Part shown: piece after piece, positions 1-11,438 of the stretch | How positions within the stretch are numbered: position 1 is the first letter of the stretch | Layout: each line of letters opens with the position of its first letter | Origin: Promethearchaeota archaeon | Lineage (GTDB): Archaea; Asgardarchaeota; Lokiarchaeia; Sigyniarchaeales; SOKP01 | DNA length: 11,438 nt | NCBI GenBank assembly: GCA_019057865.1 | Contig: JAHLWP010000067.1 | Location: forward strand, 1 to 11,438 | Reading direction: 5' to 3' | The notes under the pieces: generated by a model | The model's database searches: none | The model's input: only the letters and a program-made list of their open reading frames with translations | Told to the model about the DNA's origin: nothing | Made by a program: the position numbers and the translations under genes

Positions 1-254
1 ATGATATCGCAGGACCTATATGTGAATCTGGAGATATTCTAGGTAAAGATAGAGAGTTACCAGAGTTGAGAGAAGGAGATTTTCTTGCTATTCTTGATGC
101 GGGAGCATACGGATATACTATGAGTAGTAATTATAATTCTAGACCCAGATCCTCTGAAATTTTAATCAATAATGGAAATATTTTTAAAATCAGAGAAGCA
201 GAGAGTCTTGATGACTTGTTAAAACTTCAGATTATCCCAGATCACTTAAAGTAA
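1..254 (+). CDS. lysA: Diaminopimelate decarboxylase, C-terminal part (gene runs off the left edge)
   Basis: The frame is open from position 3 (DIAGPICESGDILGKDRELPELREGDFLAILDAGAYGYTMSSNYNSRPR...). It contains the GPxCESGD, GAYG and SNYNxRP motifs of fold-III PLP decarboxylases and lies next to dapA/dapB. The track start at 66 is an internal TTG. Confidence 0.92.
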   Translation, partial: DIAGPICESGDILGKDRELPELREGDFLAILDAGAYGYTMSSNYNSRPRSSEILINNGNIFKIREAESLDDLLKLQIIPDHLK

Positions 255-340
255 AAAAAAATAGTAATTATTTTTCATAAAAAAGAATAAAAATTTTAGT
301 GCCTTTTTCTATTATGAGATAAAATTATAAAAAAGGAATG

Positions 341-348
341 TTTAAGGA
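341..348 (+). promoter_or_regulatory. Putative TATA box for the box C/D sRNA
   Basis: TTTAAGGA follows a purine-rich BRE-like tract (AAAAAGGAA). It matches the TTTAAGAA upstream of the tRNA at 7/8 positions. The same 27-nt offset places a 5' end near 368, just before box C. Confidence 0.45.
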
Positions 349-366
349 CTGGATACCTTTAGACTT

Positions 367-437
367 TCTAAATGAAGAGTTGGCATTATGAAACCTGTGA
401 ATTCAAGTTAATGATAATACTGATCTGCTCTGATAAA
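367..437 (+). ncRNA. Candidate box C/D 2'-O-methylation guide sRNA (snoRNA-like)
   Basis: Box C ATGAAGA 372-378; D' guide GTTGGCATT 379-387; box D' ATGA 388-391; stem-loop 392-397/404-409; box C' ATGATAA 411-417; 12-nt D guide 418-429; box D CTGA 430-433; T-run from 438. The D guide is complementary to archaeal SSU rRNA helix 34 (GGCAGGUCAGUAU, recalled from memory). Ends are approximate. Confidence 0.7.
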
Positions 438-498
438 TTTTTATTATTTTATCTCATTTTCTTATATGTTCTTCAAAATATTAGATAACATTTTAGAG

Positions 499-1323
499 TT
501 ATAAGCCTAAAACTTCAGCTGTGCTATAAATCTTACTTTCTTTTGCTTTAGCAATGAATTTAATTGCTTTAATTGCACCTGTAACAAAACATAATCTGCT
601 ATGAGCCTGATGTTTTAATTCAATTCTTTCTCCAGATCCTCCAAATAGTACAATATGATCGCCAACAATATCACCTGCTCTAATTGAATGAATTCCAATT
701 TCATTTTTTGCTCCTACTAAACGTTTACTCGGCCCTTTATTACGTCCATATTTAGCTATTTCTGAAAAATCAGAACCTAAAGTATCACTAATAATATGTC
801 CAATTTTCAGAGCAGTTCCACTTGGGGCATCAATTTTTCTATGATGGTGTGCTTCAATTACTTCAATATCCCATTCTGATAGATATTTGGTTAATATTGA
901 AGCCATTTTAAAGAAAATATTCACACCAGTTGCCATATTTGGCGAAATTACAGCAGGGGCATTATGTTCTTTAACTAATTTTTCGAATTTATCAAGAAAA
1001 TCTTGAGACATTGCTGTTGTTCCAATAATACATCGAATACCATTCTTCACACAAGTTTCACAATTTTTTTCTGTTGCTTTTGCGACTGTAAAATCAACAG
1101 TTACATCAGGATTCGTTTTTTCGATAATATTTTGAAGGTTATTTACATCACTAATTTTTACTTTATTTGGATCTTTTATGGCTACATAAGCTCCTAACTC
1201 TTCTCCAATATTATTTATGTCGCAAGCAGCCACTACTTCAATATCATCATCATTTAAGGCTAATTCACTTATAATTTTTCCCATTGCCCCTGTTGGACCT
1301 AAAATTAATAATTTAATCAACAA
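499..1323 (-). CDS. dapB: 4-hydroxy-tetrahydrodipicolinate reductase
   Basis: Rossmann GPTGAMG, VDFT, IGTT, SPNMATG, the signature EAHHHRKIDAPSGTA and RAGDIVGDH. TTG start, 23 bp downstream of dapA. Confidence 0.96.
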   Translation of the reverse strand: MLIKLLILGPTGAMGKIISELALNDDDIEVVAACDINNIGEELGAYVAIKDPNKVKISDVNNLQNIIEKTNPDVTVDFTVAKATEKNCETCVKNGIRCIIGTTAMSQDFLDKFEKLVKEHNAPAVISPNMATGVNIFFKMASILTKYLSEWDIEVIEAHHHRKIDAPSGTALKIGHIISDTLGSDFSEIAKYGRNKGPSKRLVGAKNEIGIHSIRAGDIVGDHIVLFGGSGERIELKHQAHSRLCFVTGAIKAIKFIAKAKESKIYSTAEVLGL

Positions 1324-1346
1324 AATCCCTCTCTTTTATCATTTTA

Positions 1347-2246
1347 TTAGATTAAGTTTAATTTTTTTAAAACCATTTTAATTTTCTCTTGATTTTCTAC
1401 TAATGGGGGTGTTAATGGTAATCTCATCCGTTTATTCATAATTCCCATTAATTCGGCAGCATATTTGACGGGACCAGGATTAGTTTCTATGAATAATACT
1501 TTAAAAAGGTCAAATAATTCTAATTGCATTTTTCTAGCACTTTCCCAATTGTCAATATTCATAGATTGAGTAAATTCTACCATCTTAGCAGGTATAATAT
1601 TTGAAGCTACACTAATAACTCCTTTTCCACCTAATGCCATAATGTGATAGGTTAAACTATCATCTCCACTTAAAACAATAAAATCATCTGGAGTTGTTTT
1701 AATTATTTTTGTTATTTGGTCTATATTTCCACTTGCACATTTTATCCCAACTATGTTATCTTTAGAAGATGCTAATTTAGAAACTGTTTCAGGTTCTAAA
1801 TTCCTGCCAGTACGGCTGGGAACATTATATAAAATTATTGGTAATGAAACAGAATCAGCAATAGTGGAAAAGTGTTCAATTAGAGAATGTTGAACTGGCT
1901 TATTATAGTAAGGAACAACTAATAGTAATCCATCTGCTCCAGCTTTTTCTGCGTATTGCGATAGTGAAATGGCCTCTTTTGTAGAATTACTGCCTGTTCC
2001 AGCTAAAGTAAATGGATGTTTATTACTTTTTTTTGCTTCATCTATGGTGATATCTATAGCATAATGATGTTCTTCATGAGATAATGTTGCGCTTTCCCCA
2101 GTTGTTCCCATAGTTAAAAGTTGACAATCATTCTTTATTTGATATCTAATAAATTCTCGATATTTTTCTTCATCTATTGAATAGTCTTCCTTAAAAGGAG
2201 TAATTAATGCGGTTATAGTATTTCTTAATTTTTCTAAATTAAACAT
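1347..2246 (-). CDS. dapA: 4-hydroxy-tetrahydrodipicolinate synthase
   Basis: TALITPF, GTTGES, GTGSNST, PYYNKP, LYNVPSRTG, the Schiff-base Lys in GIKCASG, LSGDD and ETNPGPVK. Adjacent to dapB. Confidence 0.96.
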   Translation of the reverse strand: MFNLEKLRNTITALITPFKEDYSIDEEKYREFIRYQIKNDCQLLTMGTTGESATLSHEEHHYAIDITIDEAKKSNKHPFTLAGTGSNSTKEAISLSQYAEKAGADGLLLVVPYYNKPVQHSLIEHFSTIADSVSLPIILYNVPSRTGRNLEPETVSKLASSKDNIVGIKCASGNIDQITKIIKTTPDDFIVLSGDDSLTYHIMALGGKGVISVASNIIPAKMVEFTQSMNIDNWESARKMQLELFDLFKVLFIETNPGPVKYAAELMGIMNKRMRLPLTPPLVENQEKIKMVLKKLNLI

Positions 2247-2453
2247 ATTTAACTATCAAACTCAATATAGCATTTGATTAAAATAAATATTGTTAACGAA
2301 TTTATATAAGTATTATTGATAATTATTCAATTTGAAAACAAATTTATTTGACTAGTCCTTTTTGATTAAAAAAATAATATTAAATACAAATTTTTTTATT
2401 GGATTTATATGAAAAGTAAAGAATTTTTATAACATAATTAATTTTTAGCAGAT

Positions 2454-5111
2454 TTGGGTATATTGACAGAAAAAGAATTCTTATCAAAACGATTAGAAGA
2501 TATTTATATAAAGGTTTTAGAAACCATTTCTGAACATATTGTTTATTATGATAAAGATTTCAAAATTATTTGGGCAAATAAAACTGCGGCTGATTCACTT
2601 AATTTAACTCCTGAACAATTAGTTGGAAAAAATTGCTATAATTTATGGCACGGGCGAAACAAACCATGTGAAGAATGTCCAGTATTAAAAACACTTAAGT
2701 CTGGAGAGTTAAACCATAGGAAAATGATTACTCCAGATGGAAGGCTATGGTTTGTTGAGGGATATCCTGTTTTTAATGATAACAACAAAATTAATGGAGT
2801 AGTGGAAATTACTCGGGATATAACTGAACTTAAAAAAGTAGAAGATGCCATCCAAACTGAGAAAAAATTTACTGAAAACGTGATTAATGCATCAATTGAC
2901 ACTATTTTTGTATTTAATCCTCAGACTGGAAAAGTTCTTAGATGGAATAAAGCTTTTAATGAAGTAAGTGGCTATTCTGATGAGGAGGTTTCTTCTATGA
3001 AGGCACCTAATTCCTATTACAATGAAGAAGACTTAAAACGTGCTTCAAAGGCGATTGAGAAGTTAATCGAAGAAGGAAGTGCTAAAGTTGAGTTGTCTTT
3101 AATCACTAAAGATGGTAAATCTGTTCCTTTCGAATATTATGCAACTTTAATAAAAAGTATTAATGGTGAACCTTTAGTCGTCTCTTTAGGAAGGGATATA
3201 ACTGAAAGAAAAGTAGCTGAGCACAAATTAAAAGAATCTGAAGTGAAATATCGAAACATTCTCGAAAATTTGATGGAAGGATATTATGAAACTGACCTTA
3301 TTGGAAATCTTGTTTATGCCAATGTTGAGTATTGTAAAATAATGGGATATTCAAAGGAAGAAGTAATAGGAAAGAATTATCGCTTACTATACGATACAAA
3401 GTCATCCGAAGTTTTGTTCAATATGTTCAACCAAGTTTATAAAACAGGGATTCCCCGTCCTCCAACAGGATTAGCTAAAGTAATAACAAAAAAGAAGAAA
3501 CTAATCTATTTTGAAGGATCAGTTGATTTATTATACGATTCTAAAGGAAATAAGGTTGGGTTTTATGGTCTTGTTCGGGATATTACGAAAAGAAAAATTG
3601 CCGAGCAAAAATTAAAAAAATCTGAAGAAAAATATCGTTCTTTGTTTGAGAATATGAATGCAGGATTTGCTCTTCATGAGGTCATTGTTGATGATAACAA
3701 TAAACCAGTTGATTATAGATATATCGAAGCGAATCCTGCTTTTGAAAGACTTACAGGTATGAAAAAAGAAGATCTAATTGGAAAGACTGTAACTGAAGCA
3801 ATTCCAGGAACAGAGAATGATCCTGCGGATTGGATTGGCAAATTTGGAAATGTCGGATTATCAGGAATTCCAATAACAGTTGAGGATTATTCAGAAGCAT
3901 TTGATCGTTGGTATAAAGTTTCAGGGTATTCTCCTAAGAAGGTTTATTTTGCTGTGACTTTTACTGATATAACTGAACGCAAGAAGGCAGAAGAGGCCTT
4001 AAAAGAATCAGAGGAAAAGTTTAGAACAATTGCCGAACAATCATTTATGAGTATTATTATCATACAAGATGGCATTTTAAAATATTTTAATGAAAGATTA
4101 CCAAAAGTTAATGGATATTCACCCGAAGAAATAAAAAATTGGAAACCGTATGAATTTGCTAAGCTCATACATCCTGATGATAGAGATTTTGTTATGGACC
4201 AAGCTAGCAAAAAAGAGATTGGAGAAAAAGGTGTAATTGAACAATTTAAGTATCGCATAATAAGGAAAGATGGAGAAATTAGATGGCTTGAAAATTTTTC
4301 AAAAACAATTAATTACAAAGGAAGACCAGCCGACTTCATAATATCAATAGACATTACAGAACAAATGAATGCCGAAAAGCAATTAAAAAAATCAGAAAAA
4401 AAATATCGGGAAGCTTTTAATAGATCTAATTTTTATAAGGACTTAATTGCCCACGATATAAACAACATTCTTCAAAACATCTTATCTTCTGTTGAATTGA
4501 GTTTCCTTTATTTGGAAGAAGAGAAAGATTTAAATGAATTAAAACAAATGTTGAAAATATCTAAACAACAAGTTAGTAGGGCGGCTAATTTAATCTCAAA
4601 TGTCCGAAAATTGTCAAGATTGGAAGATATAAAAATTTCCACCAAACCCATAGAAGCCATTGAAGTATTGAATCAATCAATAGATTTTTTATTAAAAAGT
4701 TTCCAAGATAAAAAAATTAATATAGATATTGAAAATCCTTATAAAGCAATAACAGTTCAAGCAAATGAGCTTTTAATAGATATTTTTGAAAATATTTTAA
4801 TCAATGCAGTAAAGTATACTCACCATTTTCCAGTTGAAATAAAGATTAAAGTTTCAAAACTTCAAAAAGATGGCTTAAAACTTGTTAAATTTGAATTTGA
4901 AGACAGTGGAATTGGAATATCCGATACTGATAAAGGGAATATTTTTCAGAGAGTATATAATATAGATAGAACCGTCAGTGGAATGGGGATTGGATTATCA
5001 CTTGTAAGAAAAATTTTAACAACTTATAAAGGACAAATATGGATCGAGGATAAAGTTAAAGGGGACTATTCAAAAGGAAGTAATTTTGTTGTATTAATTC
5101 CAGAGGTGTAA
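2454..5111 (+). CDS. Cytoplasmic multi-PAS (5 PAS/PAC) sensor histidine kinase
   Basis: Five PAS/PAC units each end in DIT followed by a coiled linker. H-box AHDINNILQ, N-box FENILINAVKY, G1 DSGIGI, F-box IFQR and G2 GMGIGL are present. No transmembrane stretch is visible. The TTG start is uncertain. Confidence 0.93.
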   Translation: MGILTEKEFLSKRLEDIYIKVLETISEHIVYYDKDFKIIWANKTAADSLNLTPEQLVGKNCYNLWHGRNKPCEECPVLKTLKSGELNHRKMITPDGRLWFVEGYPVFNDNNKINGVVEITRDITELKKVEDAIQTEKKFTENVINASIDTIFVFNPQTGKVLRWNKAFNEVSGYSDEEVSSMKAPNSYYNEEDLKRASKAIEKLIEEGSAKVELSLITKDGKSVPFEYYATLIKSINGEPLVVSLGRDITERKVAEHKLKESEVKYRNILENLMEGYYETDLIGNLVYANVEYCKIMGYSKEEVIGKNYRLLYDTKSSEVLFNMFNQVYKTGIPRPPTGLAKVITKKKKLIYFEGSVDLLYDSKGNKVGFYGLVRDITKRKIAEQKLKKSEEKYRSLFENMNAGFALHEVIVDDNNKPVDYRYIEANPAFERLTGMKKEDLIGKTVTEAIPGTENDPADWIGKFGNVGLSGIPITVEDYSEAFDRWYKVSGYSPKKVYFAVTFTDITERKKAEEALKESEEKFRTIAEQSFMSIIIIQDGILKYFNERLPKVNGYSPEEIKNWKPYEFAKLIHPDDRDFVMDQASKKEIGEKGVIEQFKYRIIRKDGEIRWLENFSKTINYKGRPADFIISIDITEQMNAEKQLKKSEKKYREAFNRSNFYKDLIAHDINNILQNILSSVELSFLYLEEEKDLNELKQMLKISKQQVSRAANLISNVRKLSRLEDIKISTKPIEAIEVLNQSIDFLLKSFQDKKINIDIENPYKAITVQANELLIDIFENILINAVKYTHHFPVEIKIKVSKLQKDGLKLVKFEFEDSGIGISDTDKGNIFQRVYNIDRTVSGMGIGLSLVRKILTTYKGQIWIEDKVKGDYSKGSNFVVLIPEV
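5103..5108 (+). promoter_or_regulatory. Shine-Dalgarno site for the receiver gene
   Basis: GAGGTG overlaps the last kinase codons and lies 8 nt before ATA at 5117. Confidence 0.7.
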
Positions 5112-5116
5112 ACAAA

Positions 5117-5485
5117 ATAGCTTCGGTTTTTATCGTTGAGGATGATCAATCACTTAGATTGCTATTTAAAAAAGTATTAGGAATGTCTGGATATCGAGTG
5201 ATAGGGGAAGCAAAAAATGGAGAAGAGGCAGTTTCATTATTTATTTCATTTCCAAAAAAGCCGGATATTGTTTTAATGGACCATAGAATGCCAATTAAGA
5301 ATGGAATTGAAGCAACAAAACAAATCTTAAAAATTAATAGCAAATCAAAAATTATTTTCACGAGTGCTGATAATAGCATCAAGCAAGAAGCCCTTTCTAT
5401 TGGAGCGAGAAGTTTTTTGGATAAACCTTTTAGTATTACTGATTTAATAACTGAAATTAAGAATGTCTATAAGAATTTAGCGTAA
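5117..5485 (+). CDS. Stand-alone response regulator receiver (CheY-like), 122 aa, probable ATA start
   Basis: Extending the track ORF (5159) upstream in frame recovers the essential beta-1 strand and acidic pocket (ASVFIVEDD). The phospho-Asp in DIVLMDHRMP, FTSA and FLDKPF are present. There is no output domain. Confidence 0.92.
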   Translation: MASVFIVEDDQSLRLLFKKVLGMSGYRVIGEAKNGEEAVSLFISFPKKPDIVLMDHRMPIKNGIEATKQILKINSKSKIIFTSADNSIKQEALSIGARSFLDKPFSITDLITEIKNVYKNLA

Positions 5486-5526
5486 ACCAACAAAATTAAA
5501 TACTCAATATACCCTTTTAAAATGTA

Positions 5527-6528
5527 ATGCCAATTGATTATTTAGATAAGTTTAAAGGCTCTCTATTAGGAGTTGCAATTGGAGATACTCTTGGACATCC
5601 TTTTGAAGGAATGCTCAGAGATGCTATAAAATCTAATTTTACTAATTTTGAAGATTTTATAATTAATAATAGACGCTTGTTCAATACATTTACGGATGAT
5701 ACACAACTTACACTACATACAGCACAAGCTTTGATTCAAGGGGGCGGATTTAATCTACACAATTTTATAGAGGAGTATGTTAAATGGCTTGATGACCCTC
5801 CAATTGGAGCGGGTTATGGATGTATTACTGCCGCAAGAAAATTAAAATATCGAATACCATGGAAAGAAGCTGCTTCTAATTCTGGCGGAAATGGAACCAC
5901 CATGAGAATAGCACCAATTGGATTGCTTTACAATAAAGATATCAAAGCATTAAAATCGGCAGCAATAAAATCTAGCATTATTACTCATTCTCATCCAGCA
6001 GCTTCTGCTGGAGCAGTAGTAATAGCAAGAGCTATTGCATATTTAATTGATAAGGCACCAAAATCAGGATTTTCCATAGATCAATTTTTTGATGTAGTTA
6101 TTTCTTCTATTTCTAACTCTCATGATGAGATTTGGGAAGAATTTTGTGAAATTTTAGGAAAATTGCGATCGAGTCTAGATTTACCAATTGAAGCTGGACT
6201 GATTAAATTTTCTCAATCAGGAGTTAAATCCCCCTATTTTATTGAACAATATTTAGGAAAAGCATTTGTTCATCCTTATACTATAAGTACTGTTGTTTGT
6301 GCGATTTTTATTTTCCTAAAAAAAATAAATTCATTTAAGGATTGTATTTATGAGTTAGCGACTGCAGGAGGGGATAGTGATACAGTGGGTGCAATAGGAG
6401 GAGGATTAGCTGGTGCATATTTTGGTATGAAGAACATTCCGGATGATCTAATCAAAACGGTAAAGAATTATAAAAGAATTCTAAAAATTAGCGAAAAATT
6501 ATTTGAAATATTTAAAGATAGGTATTAA
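5527..6528 (+). CDS. ADP-ribosylglycohydrolase (DraG/ARH family)
   Basis: GVAIGDTLG, TDDTQ, GNGTTMRIAP, THSH and GGDSDTVGAIGG metal-binding motifs are all intact. Confidence 0.93.
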   Translation: MPIDYLDKFKGSLLGVAIGDTLGHPFEGMLRDAIKSNFTNFEDFIINNRRLFNTFTDDTQLTLHTAQALIQGGGFNLHNFIEEYVKWLDDPPIGAGYGCITAARKLKYRIPWKEAASNSGGNGTTMRIAPIGLLYNKDIKALKSAAIKSSIITHSHPAASAGAVVIARAIAYLIDKAPKSGFSIDQFFDVVISSISNSHDEIWEEFCEILGKLRSSLDLPIEAGLIKFSQSGVKSPYFIEQYLGKAFVHPYTISTVVCAIFIFLKKINSFKDCIYELATAGGDSDTVGAIGGGLAGAYFGMKNIPDDLIKTVKNYKRILKISEKLFEIFKDRY

Positions 6529-6533
6529 ATAAA

Positions 6534-7112
6534 TCATTTCAGTTTTTTAACAAATTTTAATAATCTTTTTGAGCAAATATCGCAAAATTGAGAAGGTTTT
6601 TCATCAGTATCTGCTAATGAGTTCGAAAATTGCATTATACAAAAATTATTACAGTGTTCTAAGCCGAAAGTATGTCCTAGTTCATGAATAGCTTCTTTTA
6701 AAACTCTTAATTCGAATAAAGAATTATCATCAGATCTCCTATAAAAACTTTCTCTGAGACGTGTAATTGAAATTATAGCAACACTAGAAACTTTCAAATC
6801 TACTCTAATTGGTTTTAAAGCAATTCCAAATACAAAATTTAAGAATCCTGAATAAATGTCTTTATCCATTACTCCTAATACACGAAAGTATTGCTTTTCT
6901 TTTACATAATTTTTTAATCTTCTCAATACTAATGAGGCATCATATTGATGCCTAATTTGGTTGTAATATGAATCCTCCAATGGAATCTCTTCCTCGATTA
7001 TATTTATAGATAATGAAAATTCTTTAAATGCCCATTGAAGATGATTTTTTAATTTTAATAAAATAATGCGGTCCAATTGACCTATTTTTTGAAGGTATAG
7101 AATATTTTTCAA
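6534..7112 (-). CDS. amzA: Archaemetzincin family Zn-dependent metalloprotease (peptidase M54)
   Basis: HELGHTFGLEHC-x3-CIM...FCDIC is the HExxHxxGxxH motif plus the Cys4 zinc finger and Met-turn. The conserved YNQIRHQY and NFVFG segments are present. Confidence 0.92.
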   Translation of the reverse strand: MKNILYLQKIGQLDRIILLKLKNHLQWAFKEFSLSINIIEEEIPLEDSYYNQIRHQYDASLVLRRLKNYVKEKQYFRVLGVMDKDIYSGFLNFVFGIALKPIRVDLKVSSVAIISITRLRESFYRRSDDNSLFELRVLKEAIHELGHTFGLEHCNNFCIMQFSNSLADTDEKPSQFCDICSKRLLKFVKKLK

Positions 7113-7198
7113 ATTTATGTCTTTTTTTTATATTATTTCGAAAAATCATTTAAATCTATTGAGTATTAAATAGAAAACATTACTTCTTAATTCTTATT

Positions 7199-7213
7199 AA
7201 AAAAAAGAAAAAA
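7199..7213 (-). terminator. Oligo-T archaeal terminator after the zinc-ribbon gene
   Basis: The minus strand reads TTTTTTCTTTTTTTT starting 1 nt after the TAA stop at 7215-7217. Confidence 0.5.
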
Positions 7214-7214
7214 G

Positions 7215-7433
7215 TTACATTTTTCTACCAAGTCCAACTATCGTGCTACATTGAGAGCATATACTTATATCTAAACGGACTTCTGTTATTTTTCCGGGAA
7301 ATATATAAAGTGGAGTCCTTATTCGCATTGTGAAAAGTTCATCAGTCCTTAGCATACCCTTTTCATCGCTTTCGATCCTAATTTCCTTTTTGCAGCTAGG
7401 ACAAATTATAGAACTTGGAAATTTTAATGTAAT
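7215..7433 (-). CDS. Small zinc-ribbon protein (72 aa), absent from the ORF track, probable ATT start
   Basis: Manual translation: (M)TLKFPSSIICPSCKKEIRIESDEKGMLRTDELFTMRIRTPLYIFPGKITEVRLDISICSQCSTIVGLGRKM*. It has two CxxC pairs, an SD AGGTGAT 5 nt upstream, and a T-tract downstream. Confidence 0.75.
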   Translation of the reverse strand: MTLKFPSSIICPSCKKEIRIESDEKGMLRTDELFTMRIRTPLYIFPGKITEVRLDISICSQCSTIVGLGRKM

Positions 7434-7438
7434 TTTTG

Positions 7439-7445
7439 ATCACCT
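7439..7445 (-). promoter_or_regulatory. Shine-Dalgarno site AGGTGAT
   Basis: The minus strand reads AAGGTGATCAAAA-ATT, a perfect complement of the conserved 16S 3' tail AUCACCU. Confidence 0.7.
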
Positions 7446-7626
7446 TAATTTATAATTTTATAGATTGTTAGAATAAATTATTTATAAATAAAAAATATAA
7501 ACATTAATTTATAACGGAAAAACTTTTTTAGAGTATTAATTTTATTTATCTATACCATTTTATAAATACAATAGCTTAATTAATTTTTAATTTATCTCGT
7601 TAGCAAGAGAGGAAATAAAAATTATC

Positions 7627-7634
7627 TTTAAGAA
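7627..7634 (+). promoter_or_regulatory. Putative TATA box of the tRNA gene
   Basis: TTTAAGAA begins 27 nt upstream of tRNA G1, with an A-rich tract upstream. Confidence 0.5.
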
Positions 7635-7653
7635 GGGACGCCTATTCCTCAAA

Positions 7654-7755
7654 GGGAGGGTGGTCTAGCTTGGTATGATACTATAGGGAGTTTCTCTATA
7701 GCATGATTCTTGGTTTGGGACCAAGGGGTCGGGGGTTCAATTCCCCCCTCTCCCA
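7654..7755 (+). tRNA. tRNA-Pro(UGG) with a 28-nt intron (7680-7707) at position 25/26; CCA not encoded
   Basis: Acceptor stem GGGAGGG/CTCTCCC with discriminator A73. D arm GTCTAGCTTGGTATGAT. Anticodon arm CTTGG-TTTGGGA-CCAAG with TGG at 7716-7718. T arm GGGGG-TTCAATT-CCCCC. Confidence 0.95.
7680..7707 (+). other. BHB-type tRNA intron
   Basis: Central 4-bp helix TATG/CATG, 3-nt bulges ATA (7678-7680) and ATT (7706-7708), and intron hairpin CTATAGGGA-GTT-TCTCTATAG. Cutting after the second bulge nucleotide on each side restores a normal cloverleaf. Confidence 0.88.
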
Positions 7756-7870
7756 TAACTTTCTGAATTTAAAAATTATTTAATCTTGGAACCTTAAAAA
7801 TTTATATTTGGAATTCCTTATTATTTTCATAAATAAGGACAAGAAATTTTAGTTAAATTAATACCTTAAA

Positions 7871-9355
7871 ATGAGACAAGAAATTCAAAAGGATATATCT
7901 ACTATAAAGAAATTTAAAGTTTACAAGTGGATGTATCAGTGTAAACGATGTCATACAAAATTACTTATAGTTTCATATTATTTTCATCATGAACATATTC
8001 ATTGTATCGGCGATGTGCTAAAATTAGATAAAGAGCTAATGAGAATCTATTCTTTTATTGAAGAAAAATATGATAAATCCCATGGAAGAAAGTTAATCAC
8101 AAATTGGTGTCCTCATTGTGAATTGATCATAAGTAATAAATCTATAGCAGTAAATATAGCAAAAGAACTTATCCCAAAAGGTCTACAAAATTTTGAAGAT
8201 GCATTAATCCATAATGATTTAACATTGATGGACTTGAAAACAAATATTTATGAGCAATATGGCTTGGATTCGCAACAAGCCAAAGTTTTAAAAGACATTG
8301 AAGTAATCATTGGTTTCACACTCGTACCAGCAAAACGCATTACTTCTTTTTTGCCGGGAATCATAATTGAAAATAATAAAGTAATAGGTTTAAGCCTAAG
8401 TTATTGTAACTTGCAATCGTTTCCTAAATCTATATGTAATTTAACTAGATTAAAGAAGTTAAATTTAAGTTTTAATGGTATTAAAAGTATTCCCGAATGC
8501 TTTAAGAAATTAGAACATCTTGATGAGTTAGATTTATCGCATAATCCTTTATTTCCCTTTCCTGAAATAATTACGCAGTTAAAATCTTTAAAAAAGTTAA
8601 AGTTAATCGTTAATTCATTTACAAGAATACCAGAATCGATAGGAAATTTAGCATCACTAGAGGATTTAGCGATTCATCGATTTGCTAAAATTTCACCACT
8701 TCCAAAATCGTTAGGGAATTTGACGTCCTTAAAAAGATTAAGTATAATGGGATCGCGTATTGGAGAAATACCTCAATCAATAGGTAATCTTAAATCTCTT
8801 GAATTTTTACGTTTAGATTCAAAGGATTTAAATGAATTACCAGAATCAATTAGCAAACTTAAATCACTTAAAAAATTTTATTTTAATTATAAAGAAACCA
8901 TGGATATTCCAGAATCCGTACAAAAAATGATAAGAAAAATACAAAAACCTAAAGAGTTGATTGAAGTAAAGAAAACTTATAGCAGTACAGTCGAAGTAGA
9001 AATTAAAAGAATTAAAATCGATCCAAAATTGTGTGTTAAGGATAATAACAAAATTCAAAGAGAAGAAATTCATAAATGGGAATGGGAAGATACAAAATGG
9101 GAGAAAGTAGATGATGATATAGTGTTTGCTTATGATGAGATCTATGTCATACCGAGTGTAGAAGTTTCAGGCTCAAATAGACTTCTCCCTAGATGGTTAT
9201 ATATTAAAAGAATTGGAGGCATCCGAGTAAAGGATCTTAAAGAAGCATATTATAATTATCTACCAGATTATGGAGATTATCAGTTTTTTGAATCATTTGA
9301 ATATATGTATGATTACAATAAAATCCCTGTATATTATCTATTTATAGGTTCTTAG
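7871..9355 (+). CDS. Leucine-rich-repeat protein with an N-terminal zinc ribbon and an unrecognised C-terminal domain
   Basis: CKRC (aa 24-27) and CPHC (aa 80-83), about 8 LRRs of 23-24 aa (LxxLxLxxNxLxxLPESIGNLxS), then an aromatic/acidic tail of about 110 aa. Confidence 0.88.
   Translation: MRQEIQKDISTIKKFKVYKWMYQCKRCHTKLLIVSYYFHHEHIHCIGDVLKLDKELMRIYSFIEEKYDKSHGRKLITNWCPHCELIISNKSIAVNIAKELIPKGLQNFEDALIHNDLTLMDLKTNIYEQYGLDSQQAKVLKDIEVIIGFTLVPAKRITSFLPGIIIENNKVIGLSLSYCNLQSFPKSICNLTRLKKLNLSFNGIKSIPECFKKLEHLDELDLSHNPLFPFPEIITQLKSLKKLKLIVNSFTRIPESIGNLASLEDLAIHRFAKISPLPKSLGNLTSLKRLSIMGSRIGEIPQSIGNLKSLEFLRLDSKDLNELPESISKLKSLKKFYFNYKETMDIPESVQKMIRKIQKPKELIEVKKTYSSTVEVEIKRIKIDPKLCVKDNNKIQREEIHKWEWEDTKWEKVDDDIVFAYDEIYVIPSVEVSGSNRLLPRWLYIKRIGGIRVKDLKEAYYNYLPDYGDYQFFESFEYMYDYNKIPVYYLFIGS
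8381..8930 (+). repeat. About 8 tandem LRR units (69-72 nt period)
   Basis: The 23-24 aa periodicity is visible in the protein. CCAGAATC-type codons recur near 8630, 8840 and 8909. Confidence 0.85.
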
Positions 9356-9461
9356 AAATCTTAAGTAGGACTGATTTCTGCTTTATATTTCGATATCAGA
9401 ATAAGTAAAAAAGATTATATAGTGAATAAATTTGGACCTTTCTTAGCAGGACCTTCAAATT

Positions 9462-9743
9462 CTAAGTTAATTCTTCTATTTCTATTGATTCTTCTGTATT
9501 GAAATAACTTTCAGCGATTACCTCATGAACAGATGAGATAAGAGACAACATAATAGCAGGGTTATTAGATGTAATTCTATAGTATTCATAGATTCTACTC
9601 TTTATAGAATAATTTACTTGATCTTTGAAAAATTTTAAGATTTCTTGAATATCCTTATCAAAATCTTTATGTTTTTGTATCCAAGCAATAATAACTTTCT
9701 TGTTACGCTTTTTATTGGTTTTTACTTTAGTTTTTACAATCAT
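9462..9743 (-). CDS. Hypothetical protein, 93 aa
   Basis: ATG start, basic N-terminus and acidic C-terminus. It fills an otherwise empty gap. No family recognised. Confidence 0.65.
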   Translation of the reverse strand: MIVKTKVKTNKKRNKKVIIAWIQKHKDFDKDIQEILKFFKDQVNYSIKSRIYEYYRITSNNPAIMLSLISSVHEVIAESYFNTEESIEIEELT

Positions 9744-9977
9744 TTTACCATTTGTTTTAAATACTTTAATGAAGTCCGATCAGCTTAACATTATTATAAC
9801 TTAATATATTTAAAGAAAAAGAATTTTAAATAAAAAAAAGAAGTTTGAAAAATTCTAAGTATTCATAGATCTTTGGATAATAATAATGCGAGCATTCAGA
9901 AATGCTTGTGAAATCTCGGCAAATCTTTTAACTCTAATATTAAAAAAGAAAATAAGTAATTCTATATTAATTTTACA

Positions 9978-11438
9978 TTACTTTTCAGAAACCGTTTTAT
10001 CTAAATCATGTACAATCAATTTTGTTGTATTTTTCTCATTGAATTTCAATCTGCTCTTATTTAACTCATCATCAATTCCGGCTATTTTCTTAACCATCGT
10101 TTTTCGGGCTTCAATGTCATATTGGGTTGTAATAGCTATTTCCTCCATAACTGGACTTCCTCCTCCGTGGTAGCTTCCAAAGAGATGGATTCCTCCTGTT
10201 GCAGAACACAGGCCATCACCAATGTACCGCCAGAATTGTGCAGCATTTTCAGGCGCAATTTTTGGGTTTCTAGTAATATACTTATATAGATGATCCTTGA
10301 GTTTTGGATTAACAAAATCTCTTTCGTGTGGGAAAGTTGCTGGAATACCACCACAAATATCCGTAATTATCTCAGCTTCACGGAATACATTTTCTCCGGT
10401 TAAGCATCTTCCAACATTACAATAAATTGAGTTTGGAATGTAGCTTCCTGGCCCATAAGGAATAAATCCTACTCCAGGCATGTATATTTCTGGTTTTCCT
10501 AAATCAGAAGCAGTGTATCCCGCAGCATAACCAAGTTCTGTAACTAAGATTAATTCTGCCAATTTATGCCTAACATGTGTTGCCTTAGCTATGTTGTTAT
10601 ATTCCGCAGCCAAAGCTGCTGTTCCCGTCATTATGTCTCCAATTGCGGGTTTGCATCCCGAGTAACTATGGCGGTGAAAGAGACCAAATAGTAAGGCAAG
10701 GGCACCCCCATGCAGGTATTCCCCGCATAAAAAGACTCTTTCCCATGGTACAAAAACATCGTCAAAAATTAAGTAAGAATCCGTGGCTCCTGGCTGAAAA
10801 CCACGTGGAAAATATTCCCTCTTTCGAAGATTGTGAATTGTTACCACTTGGGTTACTCCCTCATAATCTCCAGGTACAGCGAACGCAACCGCATAATCTT
10901 TATCTTCTGGTCTTAAAGCTCTTGTTGGGATGACTAGTAGTTCGTCAGAAACAGAAGCTTCCGAAATATGAAGCTTACAACCGCGAACTATAATTCCATC
11001 TTTCTTCTTTTCTACAACATGGACATACATATCAGGATCTGCTTGATCAGCAGGACGCTTAATTCGATCACCTTTTACATCAGTTTGAGCACCAGCTGCA
11101 ACTAAATCTTCCTGTTGAAATCTTAATAGCCATTTTTTAAAATTTTCGTGGTAATGAGATTCTCCATTATTTAGTTTATCAGCCTCATATGAAACATTGT
11201 ATATCGCATTCGCTGCATCGCAACCCATGCATCGCTGAATGCATCCGCCAACTTTTTGACATAATTTCCGCGTCATATCTTGCTTTTTATGAAGGTCTTC
11301 AGTACTATGATGAATATGCGTAAATCGATTAATAATTTCACCCGTAAGATGAGATTTTACTTGTACTAATTCTTTGTATTCAGGATCGTCGAAGGCTTCG
11401 AAGGTAGTTCCAATCGTATTTAGACAAGCCATTTGGCG
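9978..11438 (-). CDS. 4-hydroxybutyryl-CoA dehydratase / HpaB-fold FAD [4Fe-4S] protein, N-terminus outside the window
   Basis: GGCIQRCMGCDA (CxxxC), QTDVKGDR, GIIVRGCKLH, FDDVFVPWERVFL, HRHSYSGCK (H-x6-C) and HGGGSP. The frame stays open to the window edge (CGC CAA ATG...). Confidence 0.88.
   Translation of the reverse strand, partial: RQMACLNTIGTTFEAFDDPEYKELVQVKSHLTGEIINRFTHIHHSTEDLHKKQDMTRKLCQKVGGCIQRCMGCDAANAIYNVSYEADKLNNGESHYHENFKKWLLRFQQEDLVAAGAQTDVKGDRIKRPADQADPDMYVHVVEKKKDGIIVRGCKLHISEASVSDELLVIPTRALRPEDKDYAVAFAVPGDYEGVTQVVTIHNLRKREYFPRGFQPGATDSYLIFDDVFVPWERVFLCGEYLHGGALALLFGLFHRHSYSGCKPAIGDIMTGTAALAAEYNNIAKATHVRHKLAELILVTELGYAAGYTASDLGKPEIYMPGVGFIPYGPGSYIPNSIYCNVGRCLTGENVFREAEIITDICGGIPATFPHERDFVNPKLKDHLYKYITRNPKIAPENAAQFWRYIGDGLCSATGGIHLFGSYHGGGSPVMEEIAITTQYDIEARKTMVKKIAGIDDELNKSRLKFNEKNTTKLIVHDLDKTVSEK

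Follow-up and report, generated by a model that had tools for sequence, protein, structure and literature searches.

An extended box C/D RNA of a Lokiarchaeia-type clade, predicted to guide methylation of 16S rRNA helix 34 at the eukaryotic U25/snR56 site

Introduction

Helix 34 of the small-subunit (SSU) rRNA carries a ribose methylation that is listed as a single site in yeast (Gm1428, guided by snR56), human (Gm1490, U25), Arabidopsis (Gm1431) and Dictyostelium (Gm1506). In yeast, loss of this methylation alone raises -1 frameshifting about 1.2-fold (PMC2794176). The eukaryotic guides, U25/SNORD25 (Rfam RF00054), snR56 (RF01188), Arabidopsis snoR19 and Dictyostelium CD1, are effectively single active guides with a stem between boxes D' and C', and in the published CD1 duplex the +5 position falls on the first G of CAGGUC. 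The guide of CD1 lies at D', as those of U25 and snR56 presumably do.

Very few pan-eukaryotic snoRNA sites have been tied to archaeal guides (Hoeppner and Poole, PMC3511168). In Pyrobaculum calidifontis, however, the predicted target of sR32 (PCAsR32) is 16S G1184, or E. coli 1197 (Dennis et al., 2015, PMC4644070); this RNA is a compact double guide of ~50 nt with a second target listed as 16S C1205, a short C'/D' loop and, as listed, neither a terminal stem nor a 5' hairpin. Also relevant here are two eukaryotic systems in which box C/D RNAs pair with rRNA outside the guide duplex. The 'extra base-pairing' of yeast (2011, PMC3116282) relies on conserved non-guide elements complementary to rRNA over 4-11 bp, located between the boxes, presented in a loop or an unused second guide and paired beside the target, while snR4, snR45 and SNORD13 (PMC9226516) are C/D RNAs carrying two short antisense elements directed near helix 34. 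No paper on Asgard box C/D guide RNAs was found in the literature searched, and Rfam has no model for the RNA described below, which is located in an 11,438-nt stretch of a contig of a Promethearchaeota archaeon (JAHLWP010000067.1, positions 1-11,438, assembly GCA_019057865.1; 'the window').

Results

A probable box C/D RNA between lysA and dapB

The element occupies a 244-nt gap between two convergent genes, lysA (3' end at 3-254, + strand, PF00278) and dapB (499-1323, - strand, PF01113/PF05173). Boxes C, D', C' and D occur in the order expected of an archaeal box C/D guide, together with the GA pairs of two kink-turns, all on the + strand. Box C (372-378; ATGA-G invariant in alignment A1 and in BLAST-picked homologues) is followed by a 9-nt D' spacer or guide (379-387) and box D' (388-391, TGA invariant). 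A stem-loop, P3 (392-409, varying in length from ~11 to 33 nt among members), closes the C'/D' kink-turn, with five of six base pairs formed between 392-397 and 404-409 and a 3-nt bulge (410-412) separating P3 from the GA of box C' (411-417, ATGA invariant). The D guide (418-429) and an invariant box D (CTGA, 430-433) complete the core. The four boxes, the D'-C' stem and the bulge are thus found precisely where a first-pass annotation, made from the window alone, had placed them, and its proposal of a box C/D guide RNA in a probable Asgard host is likewise supported, the former by the ordered boxes and by the duplex with the host's own 16S rRNA described below. The host genome also encodes the protein partners of such an RNA: fibrillarin and Nop5 are adjacent (C75:80006-81474), and there are two L7Ae-family (PF01248) genes, which are not separated into L7Ae and L30e.

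Intergenic four-box patterns are rare, with only six in a 4.26-Mb scan, and the best rRNA duplex among the six (16S and the 5' 23S piece) is that of the element at 417-429. Furthermore, in 30 loci picked by BLAST without any motif criterion (the present one included), all boxes are kept and the guide core differs at one position in a single locus while the flanks drift, as befits the check on relatives that the first-pass annotation had suggested. Box invariance in loci L035 onward is partly a product of selection, and independent evidence comes from L002-L031 and the covariance-model matches.

Several other features of the window and its genome were observed. A tRNA gene missed by the default scan lies at 7654-7758 (+ strand) and reads as tRNA-Pro(UGG), with a hairpin intron of ~30 nt between the D arm and the anticodon stem; ARAGORN, run with introns, miscalls it as Tyr. 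Downstream, 7871-9355 (+ strand) encodes a protein of 494 aa in which leucine-rich repeats come after an N-terminal region rich in CxxC. The 23S rRNA of this genome (G000) is divided between contigs C16 and C46, neither of which holds the 16S rRNA (C77); short insertions seem to be present in the peptidyl-transferase region of the 3' 23S piece. Two more likely box C/D RNAs are present. The D guide of one, which is unannotated and has a short terminal stem (L310, G000:C80:27958-28020, + strand), matches the 23S P-loop, with +5 on what we take to be the equivalent of E. coli G2251; that of the other (L311, G000:C25:23349-23411, + strand) pairs over 11 nt with 23S rRNA near the peptidyl-transferase centre, with +5 presumably on the equivalent of E. 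coli C2498.

The D guide and its predicted target in helix 34

The 16S gene, which is single in this genome, served as the reference for pairing. Nucleotides 417-429 form 13 contiguous pairs with 16S 1156-1168, including G-U pairs at +1 and +6, in agreement with the duplex that the first-pass annotation had proposed. Eleven consecutive pairs run from +2, and at +5, where a box C/D guide selects its target, C425 forms a Watson-Crick pair with G1160. This helix-34 site is the best available in 16S and the 5' 23S piece (-18.5 versus -13.2 kcal/mol), and a shuffled guide or a random genomic 12-mer finds a comparable duplex anywhere in rRNA in about 1% of cases. Guide positions +2 to +8 are conserved in 96 members, a pattern that owes something to how members were selected yet holds for the BLAST-picked loci too, whereas +1 varies freely, and the target sequence is unchanged in all 21 relatives whose 16S is readable there. 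The G-U pair at +6, next to the target pair, is itself conserved (95 of 96 members) and may lower methylation activity. In the closed helix, G1160 is predicted to pair with C1013, adjoining the accessory sites considered below, so that the guide must act on an open helix.

The selected G corresponds to column 1184, E. coli A1197, of the published alignment (Dennis et al., 2015, PMC4644070) and hence to the target of sR32. The register at G1160 is identical to that of the CD1 duplex (Dictyostelium Gm1506, equivalent to yeast Gm1428 and human Gm1490), and the earlier claim that the RNA addresses the U25/snR56 site in the same register is borne out by that duplex and the published site equivalences. 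Judged by its sequence, the element is very probably a real small guide RNA directing one 16S ribose methylation at a site that eukaryotes also methylate, and methylation of G1160 by its RNP through the D guide can be predicted with good confidence.

An extended fold around the C/D core

Conservation does not end at the kink-turns but spans about 315 to 456, and P1, P2 and the C/D core together make up a three-way arrangement. P1, a terminal stem, joins 315-333 to 438-456 (+ strand) through 18 of 19 pairs, with a predicted transcript start at G316. P2 is a 5' hairpin directly upstream of box C (335-369, + strand) that folds in all 88 members with a variable stem sequence and is kept in the outlying families f2 and f3. 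Among 40 diverse members, which are related sequences and not independent of one another, 96.3% of cells in P1, P2 and P3 are paired and 12 of the 23 pairs show double changes; the 13-bp core of P1 is 96.7% paired (six pairs with double changes), the upper five pairs of P2 97%, and five pairs of P3 94.5% (three with double changes). Slid controls give only 41-54%. Covariation is also higher than in shuffled alignments (0.207 versus 0.148), and none of 500 shuffles reached the observed value.

The conserved, covarying gene is ~141 nt long (316-456), not ~70 nt as first proposed, and is about twice the usual archaeal size: archaeal box C/D sRNAs measure ~50-70 nt with a short terminal stem at the boxes, although this compactness is a typical trait and does not exclude larger RNAs. 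Two further elements of the first reading are superseded by P1. The TATA-like hexamer at 325-330 forms part of the 5' arm, and divergent members (L040, L073, L079 and L105) have compensating changes in its place; the downstream T-run (438 onward) is the 3' arm. Some copies lack P1 (L196-L198), and P2 persists in copies without it. The genome's two other likely C/D guides are compact, with neither P2 nor its loop, and the extended fold is for this reason specific, within this genome, to the helix-34 guide RNA. Two other interpretations of the helices were rejected, namely processing of P1 of the bulge-helix-bulge type, since the helix is continuous, and an H/ACA reading of P2, which has no internal pocket and whose ANANNA-like hexamer is not conserved.

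A better candidate for the promoter than the hexamer within P1 lies at 282-293 (+ strand), where an A-rich, BRE-like tract is followed by a TATA-like ATAAAA at -34 to -24 from G316, a placement that fits archaeal promoter geometry. In 81 upstream regions of the family, the frequency of A is at least 0.91 at -34 to -32 and 0.78-0.95 at -27 to -24, the -10 region is T-rich and a pyrimidine/G step occupies -1/+1; this profile is fixed in position relative to the start of P1, in DNA that is AT-rich and with G316 as a start predicted from sequence. The A-rich tract and TATA-like element suggest independent transcription from about 316, and the RNA probably has its own promoter, as the first-pass annotation of an independent transcription unit had implied.

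The P2 loop, the D' guide and possible accessory pairing

The P2 loop (348-357, + strand) has a conserved core, GGATACC (351-357), that is complementary to 16S 1034-1040 (E. coli 1081-1087). Every member collected retains GATACC, the outlying copies of f2 and f3 among them; two members have U at the first G. For all loop variants 16S 1034-1040 is the best 16S site (mean -10.9 versus -8.6 kcal/mol for the next best), and the 7-mer target is unique in the SSU and absent from both large-subunit rRNA pieces examined; for a random 7-mer the chance of a match is 8.6% in the SSU and 1.2% in the 1001-1200 region. Furthermore, the variable 5' positions of the loop lean toward complementing 16S 1041-1043, with a pyrimidine opposite G1042 in 94 of 96 members, and in 7 of the 96 the loop reads CAGGATACC, which lengthens the match to 9-10 nt. 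The target site is invariant in the 20 family 16S sequences, with no compensatory change among them, and no homologue of the RNA was found in the genomes with an alternative GGUGUCC 16S site (G050, G054, G057 and G059). One C after 355 (355-357) is missing from the window, possibly because of an assembly error or strain variation; near-identical contigs of two other studies have it, as does most of the family, and an apparent eighth loop-16S pair in this copy is consequently to be ignored. Pairing of the loop with 16S 1034-1040 may be regarded, from its sequence pattern, as a reasonable lead and not as a result.

The D' guide, by comparison with the D guide, is degenerate: 39 variants occur among 96 members, only a G-G/A-C core is kept, and +5 itself varies. 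Four 16S sites are about equally favourable (about -8.4 to -9.2 kcal/mol); a second guide with a target of its own is usual in archaeal box C/D sRNAs, though not required. The outlying homologue L194 has a clean 8-bp D' guide to 16S 1014-1021, a region also preferred by the most divergent D' variants of the family. D' most likely derives by decay from a guide to the 5' strand of helix 34 and has stopped directing methylation, with possible accessory pairing to 16S 1017-1024. Among other candidate targets, 16S 1077-1086 (helix 39 region), which by human numbering is presumably not the equivalent of human Cm1391, was dropped, as the site varies in relatives (AGC, AAC, ACC) without matching changes in the guide; helix 18 (469-477) and 1281-1290 score equally and allow no choice.

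Taken from these complementarities, accessory pairing by the P2 loop, and perhaps by the D' remnant, beside the 5' strand of helix 34 has slightly less than an even chance of being real. The likeness to yeast extra base-pairing is then one of principle, given that the yeast elements lie between the boxes and pair beside the target, whereas the P2 loop is 5' of box C and would, according to its sequence, pair ~120 nt upstream of the target, beside the partner strand of the helix. More tentative still is the proposal that the ~141-nt RNA is the mature form and that its loop pairs with 16S 1034-1043, chaperoning folding of the SSU head while the U25/snR56 site is methylated.

A different fate for the same guide RNA is also conceivable, and we consider it a credible, if not the expected, outcome: P1 and P2 could be precursor or stability elements that are trimmed to leave a mature RNA of ~65-75 nt. 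The P2 loop would in that case be recognized by a protein or nuclease, a role that is compatible with methylation and just as able to explain an invariant loop. External stems are indeed removed from eukaryotic pre-snoRNAs on maturation (PMC8817022), and the loss of P1 from some copies is consistent with a dispensable stem of this kind. On the other hand, a general processing signal should not be missing from the genome's two other likely guides, P1 is an unbroken helix and not a bulge-helix-bulge, and the leaning of the variable loop positions toward complementarity with 16S 1041-1043 is not what a protein site would call for.

Distribution

Covariance-model searches located the RNA in 100 of 126 genomes of the family (Promethearchaeia/Lokiarchaeia), as a single copy in the present genome, with a weak match in a single genome of family f2 and another in a single genome of f3; BLAST gives strong matches across the genus. 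The setting is largely syntenic, with lysA upstream in 72 and dapB downstream in 57 of 88 family loci, and the same fold is also found away from lysA (G051). The RNA was not found in genus g18 (0 of 4 genomes, the lysA-dapB spacer of G062 being without it), and three complete f2 genomes (G044, G050 and G055) gave only matches without box context; from its absence in g18 and these f2 genomes, the RNA looks dispensable. Some genomes carry partial or full duplicates near the main copy (L062, L074, L092, L130, L198 and L199), a number of which lack the 5' half, and a variant in genus g19 lacks P1 and has an altered guide 5' end. A set of family-typical loci (L036, L052, L063, L086, L087, L095, L111 and similar) stands under record titles naming Hod-, Hermod-, Thor- or Odinarchaeota, which look unreliable as taxonomy.

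The guide itself reaches further. Four contigs of Thermoproteota/Nitrososphaerota (L064, L065, L078 and L123) carry it in compact, ~55-nt double-guide RNAs near tRNA genes, whose second (D') guide matches the 5' strand of helix 34. In other Asgard archaea, surveyed by eye from complete box sets, the guide is at D' in Freyar-/Jordarchaeia (6 of 6) and in single genomes of families f5, f17, f25 and f29, and at D in f19; the scaffolds often have a second guide toward the Gm1271/Gm1328 region. The double-guide RNAs of other Asgard lineages mostly aim at both strands of helix 34 (L237-L245, L263, L265 and L266). Those with a U25-type guide at D' are the better candidates for comparison with U25/snR56 and snR40/U32.

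Comparison with known guide RNAs

By sequence criteria the RNA is an archaeal box C/D methylation guide. Its nearest published likeness in position and register is sR32, in which 10 of the 12 guide nucleotides are identical and the guide is likewise at D (PMC4644070). The two differ in architecture, the RNA described here being ~141 nt long with a degenerate D', a terminal stem and a 5' hairpin. With U25, snR56, snoR19 and CD1 it shares the helix-34 G, the +5 register, an effectively single active guide and the stem between D' and C', but no similarity outside the guide. It addresses the target of the SNORD25/snR56 clan (Rfam CL00049; human 1490, yeast 1428, +5 register), with the guide at D where that of CD1 is at D'. 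In fact, neither the SNORD25 nor the snR56 Rfam model, which the first-pass annotation had suggested as a check, matches the locus: a scan of 290-480 against 4227 families gave no match at E<=10 (RF00054 and RF01188 included), a scan of the whole window gave no C/D family match at the locus, and a genome-wide search with RF00054 did not match it either. The RNA is accordingly not a member of the SNORD25/snR56 family.

These comparisons bear on the earlier suggestion of a functional counterpart, or possible ancestor, of a pan-eukaryotic snoRNA, of which the first part stands and the second is unsupported. A direct orthologue of U25/snR56, a single guide gene passed down vertically in the Asgard line, would account for the identical site and register, for the sharing of that site by human, yeast, Arabidopsis and Dictyostelium, and for the occurrence of the guide within complete four-box RNAs of TACK genomes and several further Asgard families. 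We nevertheless judge such descent unlikely. What is similar does not go beyond an 11-nt guide whose sequence the rRNA dictates, too little to tell whether the genes are orthologous. Furthermore, the guide is at D here and at D' in CD1 and several Asgard lineages; from one lineage to another the scaffold and the second guide change, and occurrence is patchy. Other Asgard RNAs resemble U25 more closely than that of this clade does, and current trees do not place Lokiarchaeia nearest to eukaryotes. Convergence is allowed for both by Dennis et al. (2015, PMC4644070) and by Hoeppner and Poole (2012, PMC3511168). With the site already predicted for sR32, and the guide present in Thermoproteota/Nitrososphaerota genomes, what can be said is that the site is old and widely targeted.

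An acetylation guide resembling snR4, snR45 and U13 is a highly improbable alternative. The P2 loop and D' would pair antiparallel to, and colinear with, 16S 1034-1043 and 1017-1024, bringing Nat10/TmcA to a cytidine between both sites or to C1013 (the equivalent of yeast C1280). The bipartite geometry does resemble the antisense elements of snR4/snR45/SNORD13 (PMC9226516), CCG lies between both sites in some relatives, and helix 36 of P. abyssi contains an acetylated C (ac4C1041) at what is by our own count the equivalent position. In the present genome and its genus, however, the sequence between the sites is CUG and not CCG, there is no antisense element 5' of C1013, and, in distinction from snR4/snR45/SNORD13, the RNA is a canonical methylation guide with no conserved CCG between its elements. 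Nor was the enzyme found: searches with PF08351 and PF05127 gave no TmcA_N in the present genome, which is 99.7% complete, and, across 25 genomes of the genus, no Nat10/TmcA helicase domain that convinces. The CCG of helix 34 is intact in the present genome and in the 24 other genus genomes all the same.

Least probable of all is that no RNA gene exists and that a DNA inverted repeat (MITE ends, a paired operator or a bidirectional terminator) coincides with chance box motifs, for although the convergent lysA/dapB spacer is AT-rich, the minus strand folds no worse than the plus (z -3.5 versus -2.8) and some genomes have partial duplicates, P1 contains 29 G-U cells against one A-C cell, an excess which together with the double changes favours an RNA on the + strand over a DNA palindrome, the element is single-copy and syntenic with the same fold also away from lysA, and the guide is conserved and complementary to the host's own 16S.

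Discussion

The locus probably encodes an independently transcribed, ~141-nt box C/D guide RNA specific to one Lokiarchaeia-type clade. From its sequence and established biochemistry, L7Ae would bind the C/D and C'/D' kink-turns and recruit Nop5-fibrillarin. The 5' and 3' ends, as covariation shows, close a stem of 13-19 bp, with the hairpin 5' of box C. The D guide, whose complementarity is evident, would pair with the 3' strand of helix 34 in 16S rRNA while that helix is still open, and fibrillarin would then 2'-O-methylate G1160 (E. coli 1197), the eukaryotic U25/snR56 site. The P2 loop may pair with 16S 1034-1043, and conceivably the decayed D' guide with 16S 1017-1024, beside the 5' strand of helix 34 and hold that strand away, so that the target becomes accessible in the manner of yeast extra base-pairing. 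If this is true, the RNA would be an archaeal C/D RNA of eukaryote-like design, with one active guide and an accessory rRNA-binding domain outside the boxes.

The function itself, a single ribose methylation, is ordinary and common to non-Asgard archaea. The U25/snR56 site, at which guides of Pyrobaculum, of further TACK genomes and of several Asgard lineages are aimed, can now be added to the very few pan-eukaryotic snoRNA sites tied to archaeal guides, and on that distribution the methylation itself probably predates eukaryotes, even without demonstrable orthology of the genes. The extended fold, for its part, offers a candidate route by which compact, double-guide archaeal sRNAs may have given way to larger, single-guide RNAs with accessory pairing.
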